Shown: positions 1 to 64,000 of the stretch, piece after piece
Position numbering within the stretch: the stretch's first letter is position 1
Layout of the letters: each line of letters starts with the position of its first letter
Assembly (NCBI GenBank): GCA_027307335.1
Contig: DAHUXD010000019.1
Location: forward strand, 6,712-70,711
Direction: 5' to 3'
From: Acidobacteriota bacterium
GTDB taxonomy: Bacteria > Acidobacteriota > Thermoanaerobaculia > UBA5066 > Gp7-AA6
DNA: 64,000 nt
Notes under the pieces: model-generated
The model's database searches: none
Told to the model about the DNA's origin: nothing
What the model saw: the letters and a program-made list of their open reading frames with translations, nothing else
Made by a program: the position numbers and the translations under genes

Positions 1-453
1 CGCCGACACCGTCCGGCGGGGATCGACGACGACCAGCCGCGCCCCGTTGCGGATTCCCCGGAGAACGTGGTGAAAGTAGATGGGGTGCGCCTCTCGCGCG
101 TTCGATCCCCACAGGAGGATGATGTTCGCCTCCTCCGTCTCCCGGTAGGAGCTCGTCCCTCCGCCCGCCCCGAACACCGTCGTCAGACCGACGACGCTGG
201 GGGCGTGTCAGGTTCGATTGCAGCTGTCGATGTGGTTCGTGCCGAGGACCGAGCGCGCGAACTTCTGGGCGAGGTAGTTGACCTCGTTGGTCGCCTTCGA
301 GCAGGAGAAGAGGCCGATCGCGCCCGGCCCCTTCTCCGCCTTCACGCGCCGGAATCCTTCCGCCGCGCGGTCGAGCGCCTCGTCCCAGGACGCGGGGCGC
401 AACCGCCCTCCCTCGCGCACCATGGGTTCCGTCAGCCGGACGTAGGGCTTCAT
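1..453 (-). CDS. Formate dehydrogenase-family (MopB) molybdopterin oxidoreductase alpha subunit, N-terminal ~150 aa only (runs off window start). The in-frame TGA at 208-210 is interpreted as selenocysteine.
   Basis: Translation is MKPYVRLTEPMVREGGRLRPASWDEALD...GAIGLFSCSKATNEVNYLAQKFARSVLGTNHIDSCNRT-(TGA)-HAPSVVGLTTVFGAGGGTSSY. This matches the FdhF motif GTNNVDCCARV-U-HGPSVAGL, so the reading frame continues cleanly past the TGA. A GAGGAG RBS lies 6 nt upstream of the ATG at 453. No N-terminal Cys cluster is present, so this is the YdeP/FdhA-like subgroup. Confidence 0.8.
175..207 (-). promoter_or_regulatory. Candidate bacterial SECIS stem-loop immediately 3' of the UGA codon
   Basis: The mRNA after the UGA reads CAC GCC CCC AGC GUC GUC GGU CUG ACG ACG GUG. 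CGUCGUC pairs perfectly with GACGACG around a GGUCU loop, starting about 11 nt after the UGA. This resembles the E. coli fdhF SECIS apical loop AGGUCU. Confidence 0.55.
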
Positions 454-544
454 GGATCGCTCCTCACGGGAAAAGCCTAGCAGAGAGCCATCGGTTGATT
501 CGATCGCATCTCGCGCCCGGGACGGTTCGGGGGAAGCATGAGGC

Positions 545-1258
545 ATGCGCACCGATAGCGAAATTCACGTGCCCGTGATCGTTCCCGCGGCCGGCGCGAC
601 GCTTCACGGCGACCTGGCGGTTCCCGAGGCGGCGCTCGGAATCGTCCTGTTCGCGCACGGCAGCGGCAGCAGCCGCCGGAGCCCGCGGAATCGCTACGTG
701 GCCGAACACCTGCGCGCCTCGGGGCTCGCGACCCTGCTGCTCGATCTCCTGACCGAGGAGGAGGAGGCCGCCGATTTCGAGAGCGGGCACCTGCGCTTCG
801 ACGTTCCGTTCCTCGCGGGGCGGCTCCTGGCGGCGATGCGGTGGACGCTCGGCCGAAGCGAGACCGCGCGGCTGCCGCTCGGACTGTTCGGCGCCTCGAC
901 CGGCGCCGCGGCGGCGCTCGTGGCGGCGGCGCAGGCTCCCGAGGTCGTTCGCGCCGTCGTATCGCGAGGAGGCCGGCCCGATCTCGCCGGAGACGCGCTC
1001 GAGCGCGTCCACGCGCCCACGCTCCTGATCGTCGGCGACCGCGACGCCGACGTGCTCGCGCTGAATCGCGCGGCGAAGAAGCGGCTCGGCGGAGAGGTGC
1101 GGCTCTCCGTCGTCTCCGGCGCGTCCCACCTCTTCGAGGAACCGGGGACGCTCGCCGAGGTCGCGCGCCTGGCGGCGGCCTGGTTCCGGGGTCATTGCGG
1201 CGCGCTGTGGGCGCCGTCGGGCGCCGACCTGCTCGACGCCTCGGTCCGGGGAGAGTGA
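545..1258 (+). CDS. Dienelactone hydrolase family alpha/beta hydrolase
   Basis: Carries the DLH-family motifs HGSGSS and LFGASTGAAAAL (nucleophile elbow) and a C-terminal SHLF. It abuts the phosphoribosyltransferase gene as in known DLH-PRTase pairs. Confidence 0.75.
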   Translation: MRTDSEIHVPVIVPAAGATLHGDLAVPEAALGIVLFAHGSGSSRRSPRNRYVAEHLRASGLATLLLDLLTEEEEAADFESGHLRFDVPFLAGRLLAAMRWTLGRSETARLPLGLFGASTGAAAALVAAAQAPEVVRAVVSRGGRPDLAGDALERVHAPTLLIVGDRDADVLALNRAAKKRLGGEVRLSVVSGASHLFEEPGTLAEVARLAAAWFRGHCGALWAPSGADLLDASVRGE

Positions 1259-1260
1259 GC

Positions 1261-1935
1261 GTGTTCTACGTGGATCGCGCGCACGCGGGGCTCGCGCTCG
1301 CCGACGCGCTGCGTGAGTACGCGGGGCGGCCGGACGTGGTCGTCCTCGCCCTGCCGCGCGGCGGCGTCCCCGTCGCCTCCCGGGTGGCCGAGGCGCTCGA
1401 CGCGCCGCTCGACGTCTTTCTCGTCCGCAAGCTCGGCTTTCCCGGTAACGAGGAGTTCGCGATGGGCGCGATCGCCTCGGGCGGCGTTCGGATCCTGAAC
1501 GAGCCGGTGCTCGACCGCTACGGCGTTCCCGACGCGCTGGTCGAGGCGGTCGCCCGCCGGGAGGGACTCGAGCTCGCGCGGCGCGAGAAGTCCTATCGCG
1601 GCCATCTTCCGCCGCTCGAGGTGCGGGGCAAGACCGTGATCGTCGTCGACGACGGGCTCGCGACCGGGTTCTCGATGCGGGCGGCGGTGACCGCCCTGCG
1701 ATCGCTCGGTCCGCGGCGGGTGGTCGTGGCCGTGCCCGTCGGCCCCCGCGAGACCGTCGAGACCCTGCGCCGCCTCGCCGACGAGGTGGTCTGCCCGGCG
1801 ACGCCGGAGCCGTTCCTGGCGGTCGGCCACTTCTACGAGAACTTCGAGCAGACGTCGGACCATGACGTGGTCGATCTCCTGTCGCGGGCGCGTCGCCGCG
1901 AGCCCGCGAACGAGACCGCCGGGAGGGAAGCATGA
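1261..1935 (+). CDS. Phosphoribosyltransferase-domain protein (type I PRTase fold)
   Basis: Has the PRTase motifs VLALPRGGVPVA and VIVVDDGLATG. A GTG start lies 3 nt after the upstream stop. The longer ATG-started ORF 841-1935 overlaps the DLH gene and was rejected. Confidence 0.7.
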   Translation: MFYVDRAHAGLALADALREYAGRPDVVVLALPRGGVPVASRVAEALDAPLDVFLVRKLGFPGNEEFAMGAIASGGVRILNEPVLDRYGVPDALVEAVARREGLELARREKSYRGHLPPLEVRGKTVIVVDDGLATGFSMRAAVTALRSLGPRRVVVAVPVGPRETVETLRRLADEVVCPATPEPFLAVGHFYENFEQTSDHDVVDLLSRARRREPANETAGREA

Positions 1936-5651: not shown

Positions 5652-6562
5652 CAGGACGTCCTCTCCGCTGCGGCGGATGGCACCTCGAGGCGGCACGTGT
5701 GGTTCTTCTCGCGGTAGCGCGCGAGGCTCGCCGCCTCCTCGGGCTTGTACATCGCCTGACGGCGCATCATGCCGTCGAAGTCGACCTGGTGCCCGTCGAA
5801 CTCCGGACCGTCGACGCAGACGTAGCGCGCGGCGCCGCCGACCATCACGCGGCAGCCGCCGCACATTCCGGTGCCGTCCACCATGATCGTGTTGAGGCTC
5901 ACGAGCGTCGGCACGCGATAGGGCTCGGTGGTCTTCGAGCAGAACTTCATCATCAGCGGCGGACCGATCGCGATCGCCACGTCCACGTCTCCGCCCGCGG
6001 CGCGCCGCCGCTCGATCAGCCCGCGGAGGACGTCCGTGACGAAGCCCTTCTGGCCGTAGGAACCGTCGTCCGTGCAGACGAGCAGCTCGCTCGAGACCGA
6101 GCCGAGGCGGTCCTCGAAGACGATGAGGTCCTTCCGGCGGGCGCCGAGAACCGTGACGACCTCGTGGCCGGCGTCGCGGAACGCCCGCGCGATCGGGAGC
6201 ATGGGCGCCGCGCCGATGCCGCCGGCGACGCACGCGACGACGCCGCGGAAGTCGTCGGGCTTGCCGGGGACGCCGATGTGCGTCGGGTTGCCGAGGGGGC
6301 CGGCGACGTTGGAGAATTCGTCGCCTTCCTCGAACTCCCCGGTCATCTCGATGGTGGTCTTTCCCACCGCCTGGACGACGAGGGTGATCGTGCCCCGCTC
6401 TTTGTCCACGTCCGCGATCGTCAGCGGGATGCGCTCGGAGGCCGTGTGGGGCCGGACCATGACGAACTGTCCGGCGCGATGCCGTCGAGCGACGCGGGGG
6501 GCCTCGACCTCGAAAAGAGTGACGTTTTCGCCGAGGGTCTCTTTCAGAATGATTGGAAACAC
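5651..6562 (-). CDS. PyrK-family FAD/NAD(P)-binding 2Fe-2S oxidoreductase (NfnA/SudB-like)
   Basis: Has the RIPLTIAD FAD motif, the GGIGAAPMLP NAD motif and a C-terminal GMCGGCRV...C 2Fe-2S motif. Its stop overlaps the start of the downstream GltD-like gene (TGATG). Confidence 0.8.
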   Translation of the reverse strand: MFPIILKETLGENVTLFEVEAPRVARRHRAGQFVMVRPHTASERIPLTIADVDKERGTITLVVQAVGKTTIEMTGEFEEGDEFSNVAGPLGNPTHIGVPGKPDDFRGVVACVAGGIGAAPMLPIARAFRDAGHEVVTVLGARRKDLIVFEDRLGSVSSELLVCTDDGSYGQKGFVTDVLRGLIERRRAAGGDVDVAIAIGPPLMMKFCSKTTEPYRVPTLVSLNTIMVDGTGMCGGCRVMVGGAARYVCVDGPEFDGHQVDFDGMMRRQAMYKPEEAASLARYREKNHTCRLEVPSAAAERTS

Positions 6563-6685
6563 GCGCGAATGGTCGCAGGCGAGCCCCCCTCGCCGGCAGA
6601 TGCGTTTGCATCAGATCCGGCGAAAGTGCGGCAGCCGCCTCCCCTCTCTCACCGGGGGGTGAGGGGAGAACTACTGGCGTGTGTG

Positions 6686-7393
6686 TTACTTCGCCGGAGT
6701 CGGCGCCGCCGGGGGCTTTCCCTCGGTCCCCGAGTAGTAGGCCGCGAGGCCGGCGATCTCCGCGTCCGTCAGGTGTTTGCAGACGTCGCGCATGACCCGG
6801 TAGACGTCGTTGGCGCGTTCGCCCGACCGGAAGGTCGTCAGCTGTGTGGCCATGTCGTCGAATTTCTGCCCGGAGAGCTTCGGCATCCCGTAGGAGCCCG
6901 AATCCCCGGCGCCCCGCGCCCCGTGGCAGGCGTCGCAGGCGGGCATCAGTCGCGCGCCGTCGCCGAGGCGCGCGAGCGGCACGACCGCGCTCGCCTGCGC
7001 CGGAACGGCGGCGGGCGCCCTGGCCGAGGGCAGGGACGCGTAGAAGGCCGCGAGGTCCGCCATGTCCTTCTCGGAGAGCGGTTTGGCCGCCTCGCCCATG
7101 ATCGGGCTTCCCCGCGTGCCCTCCTTGTAGTCGGACAGCTGCTTGAACGTGTAGAGGGCGTCCTGGCCGGCGAGGTTCGGGACGTCCGGCGTGTCGATGA
7201 CGCCGGCGTCTCCGTGGCAGCCGGCGCAGTCCTCGTGGAGCTTCTTGCCGTGCGCGGCGTCGCCCGAACGCACGAGCCTGACCGTCTCGACCGTCCAGGC
7301 GACCTTCGAGGACGGTCCGCTGACGGCGACGGAGGCCGCGAGCGCGCCGGCGGCGGCCGCGAGCGCGGCCCCGCGCTTCAACGGAACCCCCAC
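6686..7393 (-). CDS. Diheme cytochrome c (c4-like) with signal peptide
   Basis: Two CxxCH motifs (CAGCHG and CDACHG) and an N-terminal KRGAALAAAAGALAAS signal. A GTG (7393) or TTG (7381) start overlaps the stop of the oxidase subunit I gene. Confidence 0.7.
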   Translation of the reverse strand: MGVPLKRGAALAAAAGALAASVAVSGPSSKVAWTVETVRLVRSGDAAHGKKLHEDCAGCHGDAGVIDTPDVPNLAGQDALYTFKQLSDYKEGTRGSPIMGEAAKPLSEKDMADLAAFYASLPSARAPAAVPAQASAVVPLARLGDGARLMPACDACHGARGAGDSGSYGMPKLSGQKFDDMATQLTTFRSGERANDVYRVMRDVCKHLTDAEIAGLAAYYSGTEGKPPAAPTPAK

Positions 7394-9021
7394 GCCAGCG
7401 CCTTGTGCACGGTCATCGAGAAGAACTGCCCGATCGGGTACGCCCACGACGCCGCCATCAGCACGACGAGGAGCCAGTTCCAGACGGCGAAGCCGTTCAA
7501 GGGCGCGGGCACGTGGACCACGGGCTCGACGGTCTCGGAGAGGTGAAGCGCCGGATCCGTCTCCCGTTCGGGGTTGCCGTGCGTGCGGAAGAGCACCCAG
7601 ACGAAGAGGAGCGACGAGAGGCCCATCAGCGCGCCGCCGACGATCATCGGCGGGTTCCATTTCGTCCAGCGATCCACGATCGCGGGGTCGTAGGGCATGT
7701 ACGCCACGCGGCGCGGCATGCCGAGGAGGCCCTGCCAGTGCCAGGGGACCGTCAGCACGAGAAGGCCCACGAACCACATCCAGAGCTGCGCGTTGGCGAG
7801 GCCGCGCGAGGAGAGACGCCGCCCGGTGAGCTTCGGCCACAGCGCGTACGCGCCGGCAAAGTACGCGGTGACGACGGTGCCGCCGAGGATCAGGTGGAAG
7901 TGCGCCGTGATCCAGGCGGTGTTGTGGACCATGACGTCCATCGCGTAGGACGCGTTGACGAGGCCGCCGAAGCCGCCGGGCAGCAGGGCGACGAGCGCGA
8001 GGATGCCGCCGAGGGCGACCGGCTCGTTCCACGGGAGCCGGCCGATCCAGCCGAAGAGTCCCTTTCCGCCGCGCAGGCGTCCCGCGGTCTCGAGCGAGGC
8101 GGCGATCGTGAAGCCGGTCAGGAGCGTGGGGAGCGCGACCATGAAGGTGCCGAGCGCGTGCATGAGCTTCCAGCCGGCCGCCTGCTCCGGATCCACGAAC
8201 ACGTGGTGCAGGCCGATCGGCAGGCTGATGACGAGGAGCATCACGAACGCGATGCGCCCGACCTCGTCGGAGAAGAGGTATCCGCCCGCCGCGCGCGGCA
8301 CGATCGAGTAGAGCACGACGTAGGCGGGAATCAGCCAGAAGTAGACGATCGGGTGGAGCGTCCAGGAGAAGAGCGCCCGCGCGAGGCCGACGTCGATCGT
8401 CGGCGTCAGGCCGAGGGAGAGCGGCAGGAGCTGGAAGACGACCTCGACGACGACCCCGACGAGCGTCCACGCCCAGAGGATGGCGTTGGCCGTCATCCCG
8501 AACTGGGCGAGCGGCACCGGCCGTCCCGGGTTCTCGCGCTTCCAGGAAACCGTCTCCGCGATCGTGATCGCCGTCCACGCCAGCGATCCGACGAGGAGCA
8601 GCGCGGCGCCGACGTAGAAGGTCCAGTGCGCCACCATCGGCGGGTAGAAGGTGTAGAGGACGGTCGCCTTGCCCGCGGCGATCGAGACCGCCGCGACGAG
8701 CGAGCCGACGAGCATCGTCCAGAACCCGAGCCACGCGAGCCCCTTGCGCCGGATCGGACGCCGAAGGCTCGCGGCGGTGATCGCGTAGCCGAAGCCGGCG
8801 ATGAAGAAGGTGGTCAGCACGAACGCCTGCACGACGCCGTGCAGGGTGGTGGACTGGTAGTAGAGCTCGGCGGAGATCCTGACGACGTGATCGCGCTCGA
8901 AGAGCTGGTAAACGCCGAGGAGGCTCGCGACCGCGAAGAGCGCGAAGCCGACCCACATGTGCGCGAGCGCTAGGCCGCGCACTCCGGAGAGGCCATCGCG
9001 GGGGGCGGCGGTGTCGCTCAC
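7378..9021 (-). CDS. cbaA: Heme-copper cytochrome c oxidase subunit I (B-family/ba3-type)
   Basis: Carries the motifs WFFGHPEVY-like, HHVFVDPEQ, HFHLILGGTVV and WHWQGLLGMPRRV. Its GTG start (9021) overlaps the subunit II stop (GTGA). The ATG at 9450 gives an Arg-rich extension overlapping the subunit II gene and was rejected. Confidence 0.8.
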   Translation of the reverse strand: MSDTAAPRDGLSGVRGLALAHMWVGFALFAVASLLGVYQLFERDHVVRISAELYYQSTTLHGVVQAFVLTTFFIAGFGYAITAASLRRPIRRKGLAWLGFWTMLVGSLVAAVSIAAGKATVLYTFYPPMVAHWTFYVGAALLLVGSLAWTAITIAETVSWKRENPGRPVPLAQFGMTANAILWAWTLVGVVVEVVFQLLPLSLGLTPTIDVGLARALFSWTLHPIVYFWLIPAYVVLYSIVPRAAGGYLFSDEVGRIAFVMLLVISLPIGLHHVFVDPEQAAGWKLMHALGTFMVALPTLLTGFTIAASLETAGRLRGGKGLFGWIGRLPWNEPVALGGILALVALLPGGFGGLVNASYAMDVMVHNTAWITAHFHLILGGTVVTAYFAGAYALWPKLTGRRLSSRGLANAQLWMWFVGLLVLTVPWHWQGLLGMPRRVAYMPYDPAIVDRWTKWNPPMIVGGALMGLSSLLFVWVLFRTHGNPERETDPALHLSETVEPVVHVPAPLNGFAVWNWLLVVLMAASWAYPIGQFFSMTVHKALAWGFR

Positions 9022-30365: not shown

Positions 30366-31235
30366 ATGCCCGAAGGCAACACCATTCACTGGCTGGCGCG
30401 CGTGCACACGCGCGACTTCGCGGCACGCCGGGTGCGCGCCGACTCGCCGCAGGGCCGCTTCGCCCGCGAGGCGCGGCGGCTCGACGGCCGTCTCTTCGAA
30501 TCCGCGGAGGCCTACGGCAAGCACCTCTTCCACCACTGGAGCGGCGGACTCGTGGTCCACGTGCACCTCGGGATGGCAGGTTGGTTCTACCGGCACCCCG
30601 CCCCGGCGCCGCCGCCGCGGCCGACCGTCCGCCTGCGCCTGGCGACTCGAGACGTCGCGACGGACCTGATCGGGCCGCCGACGTGCGAGCTGATCCCGGA
30701 GTTCGCGCGCCGGAAGCTTCTCGCGCGTCTCGGCCCCGATCCGCTGCGTCGGGACTTCGACCCGGATCGCGCGCTCGCCGAGCTCGTCCGGCGGCCGCGC
30801 CGCACGATCGGCGACGCCCTCCTCGATCAGCGCGTCCTCGCCGGTGTCGGCAACATCTATCGCGCCGAGGCGCTGTTCCTGACCGGCATCCACCCGAAGC
30901 GGGCGTCCGGGAACGTCTCGGCGGAGGAGTGGGAACGCCTCTGGAAGACGGTGCGCGCGCTCATGCGGCGCGGCGCCGTGCGCGGCCGCATCCGGACGAT
31001 CGAACCGGACGAGCCTCCGGCGCATCCGCTCGCGGGGCGCGCACCCGCGGATGCCTTTTACGTTTACCAGCAGGCGATCTGTCGGCGCTGTGCCTCGCCG
31101 CTCGAGGAGTTCCCGATGTCCGCGCGCCGGATGTTCGCGTGTCCCCGCTGCCAGCCCGAGCCGCGTCGCGGCTCGAAGCGCCGCGCGAAAGAGAAAAACG
31201 GCCGCGATCGGAAACGCCGCGCCGCCGCTCCCTGA
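30366..31235 (+). CDS. Fpg/Nei-family DNA glycosylase (formamidopyrimidine/endonuclease VIII-like)
   Basis: N-terminal MPEGNT catalytic Pro2/Glu3, an H2TH region, and a C-terminal zinc finger CRRC...CPRC. Confidence 0.75.
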   Translation: MPEGNTIHWLARVHTRDFAARRVRADSPQGRFAREARRLDGRLFESAEAYGKHLFHHWSGGLVVHVHLGMAGWFYRHPAPAPPPRPTVRLRLATRDVATDLIGPPTCELIPEFARRKLLARLGPDPLRRDFDPDRALAELVRRPRRTIGDALLDQRVLAGVGNIYRAEALFLTGIHPKRASGNVSAEEWERLWKTVRALMRRGAVRGRIRTIEPDEPPAHPLAGRAPADAFYVYQQAICRRCASPLEEFPMSARRMFACPRCQPEPRRGSKRRAKEKNGRDRKRRAAAP

Positions 31236-31533
31236 CGCCGTTCTCCTTCGGGAGCGGTGAACGCCGGAAACGACAAAAACGGTGCGCGGCACGTCGTCGC
31301 CGTCGCGGCCAGGGAGCTCGAATCGTCGCAACCGGCATGCCACCAGGGACGACGGTGGGTGGCGCGCGCGTTCGCTCGTGACGTTGTGCGGCGCGGGTCG
31401 ATCCGGGTCGTCACGCCGGCGAGGGATACGAAATGAGAGACGACGCGCCGACCCGCCACCGAGAGCCTCCGAAGAGAAGCGAAACGGCTGCGGCCCCGCG
31501 GTGTCCGGGGGGCCGCATCCGTTGCGCTCGAAG

Positions 31534-50736: not shown

Positions 50737-51097
50737 TGGTGGAGGCGGCGGGAGTTGAACCCGCGTCCGGAAGCGCGACGGGAGAGGCCACTCCATGCTC
50801 AGCCTCTTCTTGGTTCTCGCCCCGCCGCCTCGAGAAGAGGCAAAACGGCGGAAGGGCAACCCCGGATTCGTTTCGCACGAGCGGCCGGGGGACCGCGCGC
50901 GCTACACCCGAATTTCGCGACGTCGGCCGGAGCGCGTCGGGTGCGCTCACCGTCCAACGAGGCTACTTAATTAAGCAGCCAGAGCGAAGTTGCTGTTGTT
51001 CGCAGCTACTATTTTTCACCCTGCTTTTACGAGGAGGGGTGAGACCTCGGCATGCAACCTCTCGCGCCGACGTCCCCGTCGAAGCCGTTTCGCCCCC
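50737..51097 (-). ncRNA. ssrA: tmRNA (SsrA)
   Basis: 5' end GGGGGCGAAACGGCTTCGACGGGGACG and 3' end GGACGCGGGTTCAACTCCCGCCGCCTCCACCA. The internal tag reading frame GCG AAC AAC AGC AAC TTC GCT CTG GCT GCT TAA gives ANNSNFALAA followed by a stop. Confidence 0.9.
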
Positions 51098-61900: not shown

Positions 61901-62482
61901 TCAGCGTTCCCTCGGCACGAACACCATGTCCGCGGGCAGAGAGGGATCTTCCTTGCGCCGCCGCAGATAGAGCTCCGGATAGGAGTAGGGAACCGCCTCG
62001 CTCGCATCGAGCCCGAGCGCCGCGACCACCCTCCGGATCGCGCCGGGATCGCCCTCGATCTCGACGAAATCCCCGATCGGCGTCTCGTCCAGAGCGACGA
62101 CGCAGCCCTCGGAGGCCCACTCCTCGCGGCGCTTCTCGTATCGGAAGGTCTTCGTCAGGCCGAGTCCCGCGAGGATCGCGTCGGCCTCGCCCGCGTCCGA
62201 GACGTCGACCTCGCGTTCCTCGCGCACGCGCGTGCCGCTATCGAAACGGGACACCCCCTTGTAGGTCAGCACGGCACGCCCGGCGGCGCGGCGGAGGCGC
62301 ACCGTCCGTCCGCTTGCGGAGAGCCTTCGCTCGGGGTCGTCGTAGAGATCGTTCGACTCGTCGTGCCGCGGAGCGTGGAGCCGGGCGCCGGTCCTGGAGA
62401 GGCGGTCCCGGACGGGGGCCAGTTCAGCGACCGGAAGCTTGATCTCGATCTCTTCGCGGCGGCCGGCCTCGCCGGCGCTCAC
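61901..62482 (-). CDS. CYTH-domain protein (class IV adenylate cyclase/triphosphatase fold)
   Basis: N-terminal EIEIKLPV (ExExK) motif. Confidence 0.65.
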   Translation of the reverse strand: MSAGEAGRREEIEIKLPVAELAPVRDRLSRTGARLHAPRHDESNDLYDDPERRLSASGRTVRLRRAAGRAVLTYKGVSRFDSGTRVREEREVDVSDAGEADAILAGLGLTKTFRYEKRREEWASEGCVVALDETPIGDFVEIEGDPGAIRRVVAALGLDASEAVPYSYPELYLRRRKEDPSLPADMVFVPRER

Positions 62483-62916
62483 GGCAGGAGGCGTCGCGCG
62501 ATCGCCTGCGCCTGCTTCCCGTCGACGCGGCCCTTGTGGCGGGCCATCAGCTCCTTCATCGCGAGCCCCACGTCCTTCGAGGAGGAGAGGCCCTTCTCGG
62601 CGATCACATCGCGCAGAGCGGCCTCGATCTCGGCGTCGGCCAGTCCCTTCGGAAGGTAGGCCTCGAGGATGCCGAGCTCCTCCGTCTCCGCGTCCACCAG
62701 ATCCTGGCGGTTGCCCTTCGCGTACTGCTCGATCGAATCCTTGCGCTGCTTGACGGCGCGGCGGAGGACCGCCTCGACGTCCTCGGAGGTCAGCTCCCGC
62801 TGCGCCTGGATGCGCTCGTTCTTCAGGTTGGCGAGTAGCAGGCGCAGCGTCGCGACCCGCCGCTTATCGCCCGCCTTCATGGCCGTCTTGAGGTCCTCTT
62901 CGATGCGGGACTGCAT
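62479..62916 (-). CDS. GatB/YqeY-domain protein
   Basis: YqeY family consensus (LKTAMKAGDKRRVATLRLLLANLKNERI...). Confidence 0.7.
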   Translation of the reverse strand: MQSRIEEDLKTAMKAGDKRRVATLRLLLANLKNERIQAQRELTSEDVEAVLRRAVKQRKDSIEQYAKGNRQDLVDAETEELGILEAYLPKGLADAEIEAALRDVIAEKGLSSSKDVGLAMKELMARHKGRVDGKQAQAIARRLLP

Positions 62917-62976
62917 GGCGCGAGGCTATCAAAGCCCGCTTCCCGTTTGCCGCGGCGCGCCGGCGAAGCGACATAT

Positions 62977-64000
62977 TCTGTCGGCGTGAAGCGATTCCTC
63001 GTCGGCACGGCCGGGCACATCGATCACGGAAAGACCGCGCTCATCAAGGCGCTCACCGGAATCGACGCGGACCGCCTGCCCGAGGAGAAGCGCCGGGGCA
63101 TCACCATCGACCTCGGTTTCGCGCACGCGGAGTGGGAGGGCGTGCGCATTTCGTTCGTGGACGTTCCCGGACACGAGCGGTTCGTGCGCCACATGCTCGC
63201 GGGCGCGGGCGGGATCGACGCGGTGCTCCTCGTCGTGGCCGCCGACGAGTCGGTGATGCCTCAGACCCGCGAGCATTTCGACATCGTGCGGCTGCTCGGG
63301 CTTCCCGCGGGCGTCGTCGCCGTGACGAAGGTAGACCGCGCCGGCCGCGAGCTCGCCGAGGTGACGGCGAGCGACGTGCGCGACCTCGTGCGCGGATCCT
63401 TCCTCGAGGAGGCTCCGATCATCCCGGTGTCCGCCGTGACCGGCGAGGGGCTGCGCGAGCTTCGGTCCGCGCTCGTCGCCGTGGCGGCGCGCGCGCACGC
63501 GGAAGAGCGCGAGCCCCGCGCCATTCGCCTGCCGATCGACCGCGCGTTCCTGATCCCCGGGTTCGGTCCGGTCGTCACCGGCAGCCTCGTGTCCGGGACG
63601 GTCACGCGCGACCAGAAGCTGGAGCTGCTGCCGGAGCGCCGGCCCGTCCGCGTGCGCCGCGTCGAGGTCCACGGGCGCGAGGAAGAGACGGCCCGCGCGG
63701 GGGAACGCGTCAGCGCGAACCTGGTCGGCGTCGAGCTGTCGGACCTTCATCGCGGCATGGTCCTCTCCGCCCCGGACGCGCTTCCGGTGTCGTCGCGCCT
63801 CCTCGTTCGGCTGGAGCTCCTTCCCGGGTCGAAGCCCCTCGAGAGCGGCAGCCGGGTCTCGTTTCATCACTTCGCGAGCGAAGCGCGCGCGAGCGTGCGC
63901 CTCCTCGAGGCGCGATCCGTTCCCCCCGGGGGCACCGCGCTCGCGCAGCTCCGGCTGTCCGCTCCCGTCGCGGCGGCGCCGGGCGACCGCTTCGTGGTCC
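62977..64000 (+). CDS. selB: Selenocysteine-specific elongation factor SelB, N-terminal GTPase part (runs off window end)
   Basis: GTG-initiated [47 protein letters not shown]...VDVPGHERF... The [12 protein letters not shown]1 motif and the [17 protein letters not shown] region are diagnostic of SelB rather than EF-Tu. Confidence 0.8.

Follow-up and report, generated by a model that had tools for sequence, protein, structure and literature searches.

From our analysis of a 64,000-nucleotide stretch of DNA from an Acidobacteriota bacterium (contig DAHUXD010000019.1, positions 6,712 to 70,711; hereafter the window, whose own numbering is used throughout), the gene that runs on the minus strand from position 453 to position 1 very probably encodes the catalytic, bis-molybdopterin-binding subunit of a metal-dependent formate dehydrogenase (FDH) that contains selenocysteine (Sec), with the UGA at codon 82 recoded and the subunit working in a split, NAD-linked complex. 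Computation showed an in-frame UGA, homology before and after the codon, the pairing of Sec-type with cysteine (Cys)-type orthologues, the conservation of a hairpin behind the codon with constraint on its synonymous sites, and a selB gene in the same window. The features on which the argument turns are the following.

1..453, minus strand: codons 1-151, at the 5' end of the gene that encodes the molybdopterin-binding catalytic subunit of FDH, identified by PF00384, TIGR01591, Protein Data Bank (PDB) matches and orthologues.
460..465, minus strand: Shine-Dalgarno sequence GAGGAG, 6 nucleotides (nt) before the ATG at 453-451, read from the sequence.
208..210, minus strand: UGA codon 82, predicted to be read as Sec, which aligns with Sec140 of E. 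coli FdhF.
178..196, minus strand: core of a selenocysteine insertion sequence (SECIS) hairpin, CGUCGUC (196-190), GGUCU (189-185) and GACGACG (184-178), 7 base pairs (bp), from folding and conservation.
166..205, minus strand: extended SECIS-like element with a possible lower helix (nt 6-13 with nt 35-45), from the minimum free energy (MFE) structure.
62986..64000, plus strand: selB, the gene for the Sec-specific elongation factor, which starts with GTG at 62986 and is cut by the window end.

The minus-strand frame opens with the ATG at 453-451, the same start residue as in orthologues, and runs for 81 codons (MKPY...IDSCNRT) to the TGA at 210-208, where it continues with HAPSVVGLTTVFGAGGG... 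Past the TGA it reads HAPSVVGLTTVFGAGGGTSSY... and stays open to window position 1 with zero further stops, so that 151 codons of a gene cut by the window start lie inside the window (the orthologues have about 635 amino acids (aa)). An earlier note on this DNA had proposed a formate-dehydrogenase-family selenoprotein whose frame passes through the TGA into H-A-P-S-V-V-G-L in an FdhF-like context, and had warned that an open reading frame (ORF) finder would truncate the gene at 208. The translation agrees with this proposal: the Sec codon stands in the context DSCNRT-U-HAPSVVGL (VDCCARV-U-HGPSVAGL in E. coli FdhF), the protein beyond the UGA is strongly homologous to MopB formate dehydrogenases, and the mechanical ORF list does end the gene at 208 (ORF 208..552).

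Gene callers stop at this TGA in relatives as well. Dozens of database entries of 83-87 aa end in ...DSCNRT, and most Sec forms in databases are mis-annotated as stubs of this length. The exact 81-aa stub of the window matched no recorded entry, and the contig of one close stub (P0049) breaks off directly after its stub. Such calls would fit a TGA that is a true stop (a pseudogene, a nonsense mutation or an assembly error), leaving a dead gene or only an 81-aa peptide. In three genes nearby, of which two have Pfam support, TGA serves as a normal stop codon, and the genetic code is accordingly standard. A scan of orthologues, in which one genome per species was taken, gave 80 loci, the closest of which (82-89% identity) are metagenome-assembled genomes (MAGs) of Acidobacteriota/Thermoanaerobaculia. 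Among 83 sites, the window included, the homologous codon is TGA in 59 and TGC or TGT in 24. The TGA sites are spread over at least seven phyla (Acidobacteriota, Chloroflexota, Planctomycetota, Myxococcota, Actinomycetota, Proteobacteria, and Vulcanimicrobiota), and nearly all Cys sites belong to genera of Pseudonocardiales. Read through the TGA, the relatives' genes yield proteins of about 635 aa that lack an upstream Fe4S4 domain, and in every full-length case examined the frame beyond it is open for about 553 codons with strong homology. A TGA kept at one codon across so many phyla ahead of an open homologous frame, together with Cys at the homologous position in other orthologues and purifying selection on the synonymous sites of the hairpin, makes a true stop hardly credible, and we read codon 82 as recoded.

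Two groups of loci deserve separate mention. In the cultured actinomycete Actinoallomurus iriomotensis NBRC 103681 (L051, 4001-6300), the catalytic-subunit gene occurs twice in tandem, first with TGA (4235) and an intact hairpin (GTCGCCGGTCTGGCGGC) and then with TGC (6258), which makes the copies a natural pair of Sec/Cys paralogues. MAG contigs recorded as Candidatus Cryosericum sp. (L015) and Dongiaceae (L025) also bear copies that share 82-83% identity with the gene of the window. This identity matches that of the Acidobacteriota copies, which suggests mis-binned contigs or recent horizontal transfer.

The hairpin behind the UGA was found just as the earlier note had described it, with a perfect 7-bp stem (CGUCGUC/GACGACG) capped by GGUCU and beginning 11 nt past the codon. 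Counted from the U of the UGA, GGUC occupies nt 22-25 both here and in E. coli fdhF, and the 19-mer folds with a free energy of -9.8 kcal/mol. The element agrees with the bacterial SECIS consensus (PMC13188914, Fig. 2A) on all four of its criteria. Where the consensus allows 3-9 nt in the apical loop and 4-16 bp in the upper stem, the window has the 5-nt GGUCU on 7 perfect bp; where it asks for one G or more among the first two loop nucleotides (G, then G or U), the loop begins GGU; another of the criteria corresponds to 18 nt here (nt 4-21); and for an MFE of at most -7.5 kcal/mol, the values are -9.8 for the 19-nt core and -26.3 for nt 4-45. In a window of 71% GC, 2.5% of TGA triplets precede a hairpin with a perfect stem of 7 bp or more that conforms to the bacterial SECIS rules, and 0.8% of the window's TGA triplets have GGTC at nt 22-25. 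From the window sequence alone, the hairpin does not stand out beyond chance; its significance comes from the comparative data.

For this comparison, pairing was counted in 47 distinct Sec-type sequences and 24 Cys-type sequences. The six core pairs from 16-32 to 21-27 form in 47 of 47 Sec-type sequences, even where the bases differ: pair 20-28 is UA in 28, UG in 15, and CG in 4, and pair 18-30 is CG in 46 and UA in 1. The loop is GGUCU in all Sec-type sequences but one, and GGUC is retained in 46 of 47. Of the 24 Cys-type sequences, only 2 form pair 16-32, 14 form 18-30, and 16 form 21-27. The wobble positions behave likewise. Third-codon entropy in the stem and loop (nt 18, 21, 24, 27, and 30) is 0-0.13 bits in the Sec group, where most flanking wobble positions have 1.1-2.0 bits, and for these five positions the Cys group gives 0.87-1.86 bits. 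As the wobble sites are frozen in the Sec group while the Cys group varies and loses the stem, this comparison indicates selection on the hairpin at the RNA level, restricted to genes in which the codon is UGA. The earlier note had also named orthologues with Cys or a stop at this codon and no conserved hairpin as evidence against its reading; the outcome favours that reading, the orthologues carrying either TGA with the hairpin or Cys without it.

One could object that the element lies wholly within conserved coding sequence and that several of its paired columns are first or second codon positions, so that the hairpin could be preserved merely through the peptide SVVGLTT and have no RNA function. 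We regard this as highly improbable. The Cys orthologues encode nearly the same peptide (SVAGLA), yet their wobble positions are free and the stem is broken; in Sec-type genes the V to A and T to A changes co-occur, turning U-A into C-G or U-G and never into a mismatch; and GGU is the Gly codon in 56 of 57 sequences although the genomes are rich in GC. Selection on the RNA, then, remains our reading of the core. Support for the lower helix is mixed and below that of the core. It is paired in 85% of the Sec group against 40% of the Cys group, and its wobble-wobble pair 9-42 forms in 27 of 47 sequences against 18.7 expected (p about 6e-4 in a shuffle test that takes no account of phylogeny), but pair 12-36 shows no covariation and pair 15-33 forms in just 31 of 47. 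A lower helix may therefore exist, and only the core of 6-7 bp is claimed firmly.

The decoding factor that such a hairpin would call for is encoded at the other end of the window, about 63 kb from the fdh UGA. The selB gene product is 41% identical to E. coli SelB (tblastn, E 1.7e-62) and scores 312.9 bits on TIGR00475 (cutoff 242.25) against about 150 bits on EF-Tu models. The conservation of the hairpin confined to TGA orthologues and the selB gene in the window are together consistent with SelB binding and Sec insertion being directed by the hairpin.

We then compared the protein with family models and solved structures. The 151 residues in the window match the Pfam Molybdopterin domain (PF00384, E 1.4e-26), and the best NCBIfam model for them is TIGR01591 (Fdh-alpha, 173 bits), aligned from profile position 53, which comes directly after the N-terminal Fe4S4 domain. 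A full-length orthologue that is 87% identical to the window protein (L005) scores 658.5 bits on the same model over positions 52-672. It falls below the cutoff of 666.25 solely because profile positions 1-51, the Fe4S4 domain, are absent. TIGR01591 is the top model for the fragment and for the full-length orthologue alike. In the solved structures, the orthologue matches FdhF of the hydrogen-dependent CO2 reductase (HDCR) of Thermoanaerobacter kivui best (7qv7_S, E 5e-154), and also an archaeal FdhA, E. coli FDH-H (1aa6, E 1.6e-139), and Rhodobacter capsulatus FdsA, the alignment to which begins at FdsA residue 308. In the alignments, U82-H83 of the window protein corresponds to U140-H141 in E. 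coli FdhF and to C-H in HDCR FdhF. In all full-length orthologues examined, the region beyond the window holds the RGQNNVQG arginine motif (LRGQNNVQG) and the C-terminal Molydop_binding domain; the Sec/Cys-His dyad is conserved in orthologues along with the motif.

The earlier note had placed the enzyme in a YdeP/FdhA-like subgroup because the N-terminal 4Fe-4S cluster is lacking. The absence itself stands, as no Cys-rich Fe4S4 domain was found in the window ORF or in the 90 nt before it, but the subgroup drawn from it does not; judged from relatives, the absence is explained by a split gene. On the FdhF/YdeP family model TIGR01701, the orthologue reaches 264.9 bits (cutoff 582.15) and on the YdeP model NF007406 129.8 bits (cutoff 1473), and the window fragment reaches 106.9 and 56.7 bits, respectively. 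A YdeP-type assignment was rejected on these scores, and the protein is classed, on its profile and structure matches, as an FdhF/FdsA-type formate dehydrogenase catalytic unit. A MopB oxidoreductase of another substrate, such as an assimilatory nitrate reductase (NasC/NasA-like) or a YdeP-like enzyme, is unlikely. The orthologue does match NasC at 406 bits, NasA at 347 bits, and the YdeP family model at 265 bits, and RefSeq labels the Cys orthologues just as 'molybdopterin oxidoreductase family protein'. Nevertheless, the Fdh-alpha score is far higher, the top structures are all formate dehydrogenases or CO2 reductases, and the dyad and the arginine motif are both present. Moreover, fdhD, which encodes the sulfurtransferase of FDH cofactor maturation, is adjacent in several relatives, and the NuoEF and NuoG-like partners mirror FdsABG. 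Formate dehydrogenase thus remains the preferred assignment.

The domain missing from the catalytic subunit was located in relatives. In a locus of 71% identity with 10 kb of flank (L081), an 87-aa stub and a 546-aa remainder make up the catalytic subunit as cut at the Sec codon. They are followed by a 602-aa NuoE/NuoF-like fusion (2Fe-2S_thioredx, Complex1_51K, SLBB, NADH_4Fe-4S), which matches FDH beta subunits and NuoF, and then by a protein of 309 aa that ends in a Molybdop_Fe4S4 domain (CPYCGVGC...LCIKG) and also contains Fer2_4, Fer4, and Fer4_Nqo3; the order closes with fdhD on the opposite strand. This order is kept in about 60 of the 80 loci where there is enough flanking sequence, including the Acidobacteriota loci L004, L005, and L021 (83-89% identity), in which the catalytic-subunit and NuoEF genes are adjacent. 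In the Acidobacteriota loci L001, L003, and L019 (around 5900-7450) an extra gene of about 500 aa, whose product has a signal-peptide-like N-terminus, lies between these two genes. The split operon is frequent in genomes, with at least 548 confirmed matches.

The relatives' Fe-S subunit aligns to R. capsulatus FdsA 24-303 and their catalytic subunit to 308-931, so the two tile one FdsA. In an unsplit relative (P0080), the Fe4S4 domain stands directly before the motif RLTEPLIRKNG, with which the window protein begins. Judged from these alignments, the alpha subunit is split at the Fe4S4/Molybdopterin boundary and its halves are encoded in permuted order. The enzyme is probably a split, complex-I-like, NAD-linked formate dehydrogenase.

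Several points weigh against the reading developed here. The 66-nt fold of the single sequence is not significant (z = -1.41; 20 of 200 shuffles fold equally well). The Rfam SECIS_3 model (RF01989) matches 155-213 at only 18.9 bits (E 0.19, gathering threshold 63), with an alignment that covers the full model length in register with the UGA, and no SECIS family reached the Rfam gathering threshold in the 64-kb window. The hairpin comparison sets the Sec group against a phylogenetically narrow Cys group, and its shuffle controls ignore relatedness. Substrate, metal, and electron acceptor of the subfamily are predicted from homology, and, as 151 codons lie inside the window, the rest of the gene and the operon composition in the window organism, which would lie beyond position 1, are predicted from relatives and their synteny. 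Lastly, selA, selD, and tRNA-Sec were not found within the window (ARAGORN, tblastn with E. coli SelA and SelD, Rfam), a negative that is uninformative because the window is a 64-kb sample of the genome.

The same negative would suit a UGA recoded to something other than Sec, either to Cys by a tRNA-Sec-like tRNACys(UCA) with a SelB paralogue (selC*/selB*) or by near-cognate read-through. Some anaerobes do have systems of the selC*/selB* kind, and Acidobacteria commonly carry irregular allo-tRNAs (PMC5389517). However, selB* lies directly downstream of selC* in those systems and selC* comes from Firmicutes, Thermodesulfobacteria, Nitrospirae, and Proteobacteria, not Acidobacteria (PMC5389517), whereas the selB of the window has neither selA nor a tRNA in front of it, the upstream region of about 1 kb (62007-62985) being without any Pfam match. 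The window selB also passes the curated selB equivalog cutoff, and ordinary Sec decoding agrees with a canonical SECIS whose GGUC stands at the same positions as in E. coli. We consider non-Sec recoding very unlikely, and Sec at codon 82 is retained in what follows.

On the preferred reading, the enzyme would work as follows. When the ribosome reaches UGA 82, SelB with GTP and Sec-tRNASec would bind the hairpin at 178-196 through the GGUCU loop and deliver Sec, and translation would go on; the actual insertion of Sec is what we infer from the comparative evidence. Sec82 is the predicted ligand of Mo or W, and the identity of the metal would follow from its homologues. Together with His83 and the Arg of LRGQNNVQG, seen in orthologues, Sec82 would oxidise formate to CO2 or catalyse the reverse reaction. 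The catalytic polypeptide, which has no 4Fe-4S domain of its own, would have arisen by the splitting of an ancestral FdsA-type alpha subunit. Electrons would pass from Mo or W to a proximal 4Fe-4S cluster supplied in trans, through the NuoG-like Fe-S chain to flavin mononucleotide (FMN) in the NuoF module, and probably on to NAD+, the acceptor suggested by the relatives' partner subunits.

Parts of this design are known from other systems, although each differs in some respect. E. coli FdhF resembles the window gene in its MopB fold, in Sec followed by H-x-P-S-V-x-G-L, and in a SelB-dependent SECIS right after the UGA with GGUC at nt 22-25, but it has its own N-terminal 4Fe-4S domain, which the window subunit lacks, and works with hydrogenase 3. 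The loops are also built differently, the E. coli GGUC being closed by A-U with a bulged U17 and the window's 5-nt GGUCU sitting on an uninterrupted 7 bp. FdhF of the HDCR shares about the same catalytic core, but it carries an Fe4S4 domain of its own (its chain aligns from residue 63 onwards) and its partner is an [FeFe] hydrogenase in filaments, not a NuoEF module. A parallel in composition is FdsABG(D) (R. capsulatus, 6tg9; Cupriavidus necator, 6vw7), in which FdsA is tiled by the relatives' two subunits, FdsB and FdsG match their NuoE/NuoF-like partner, and fdhD lies in the neighbourhood. FdsA, however, is a single polypeptide with an active-site Cys, whereas here there are two polypeptides, Sec, and fused E and F modules, and the relatives' gene order is permuted with respect to FdsA, the C-terminal part coming first and the N-terminal part last. 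The beta subunit of Methylobacterium extorquens FDH1 (Fdh1AB; 7e5z, 7vw6) is a NuoE-NuoF fusion (7e5z_B) like the relatives' 602-aa protein, and its alpha subunit matches at E 3e-120. That alpha subunit is unsplit and has Cys and tungsten. A precedent for a MopB catalytic unit in separate, reassembling polypeptides is FwdB/FwdD of formylmethanofuran dehydrogenase, where the split takes off the C-terminal domain IV and not the N-terminal Fe4S4.

A Sec-containing FDH gene is of an ordinary, well-known kind, and the split gene order is a modest curiosity. FdhA is described as the bacterial selenoprotein of widest distribution (PMC13188914), and Sec-containing FdhA being a textbook case, current understanding is not overturned. 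It is possible, though we propose it only tentatively, that these enzymes form a widespread undescribed soluble FDH subclass, with the proximal 4Fe-4S domain on a NuoG-like C-terminus, a permuted gene order, and repeated Sec/Cys switching. Literature searches for the split architecture found no description of it, which is weak evidence of novelty; a paper on a mycobacterial selenoprotein FDH (PMC13449736) was set aside as it concerns FdoG-type enzymes of another subfamily. The finding matters for annotation, since in dozens of genomes from soil and sediment the gene is called only up to its Sec codon. The capacity for formate oxidation or CO2 reduction and the use of selenium are consequently counted too low in Acidobacteriota, Chloroflexota, Planctomycetota, and other groups. 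The split enzyme is in effect a natural experiment on the docking of the proximal Fe-S domain onto the MopB core, and the Sec and Cys orthologues, including the tandem pair in one cultured strain, provide matched material on why selenium is used.

The remaining window holds a few further features. The gene 5' of fdh is a divergent alpha/beta hydrolase gene (545-1258, plus strand), which a phosphoribosyltransferase-domain gene (1255-1935, plus strand) overlaps by 4 nt; both end with TGA. A CyVA-1 RNA (RF02965) was matched at 31219-31292 on the minus strand with 52.8 bits (gathering threshold 41.4), and a weak SelA-like tblastn match adjoining it (31024-31215, E 0.44) was judged to be chance. 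A tmRNA gene lies at 50737-51097 on the minus strand (ARAGORN; Rfam 177 bits) and encodes the tag peptide AANNSNFALAA.

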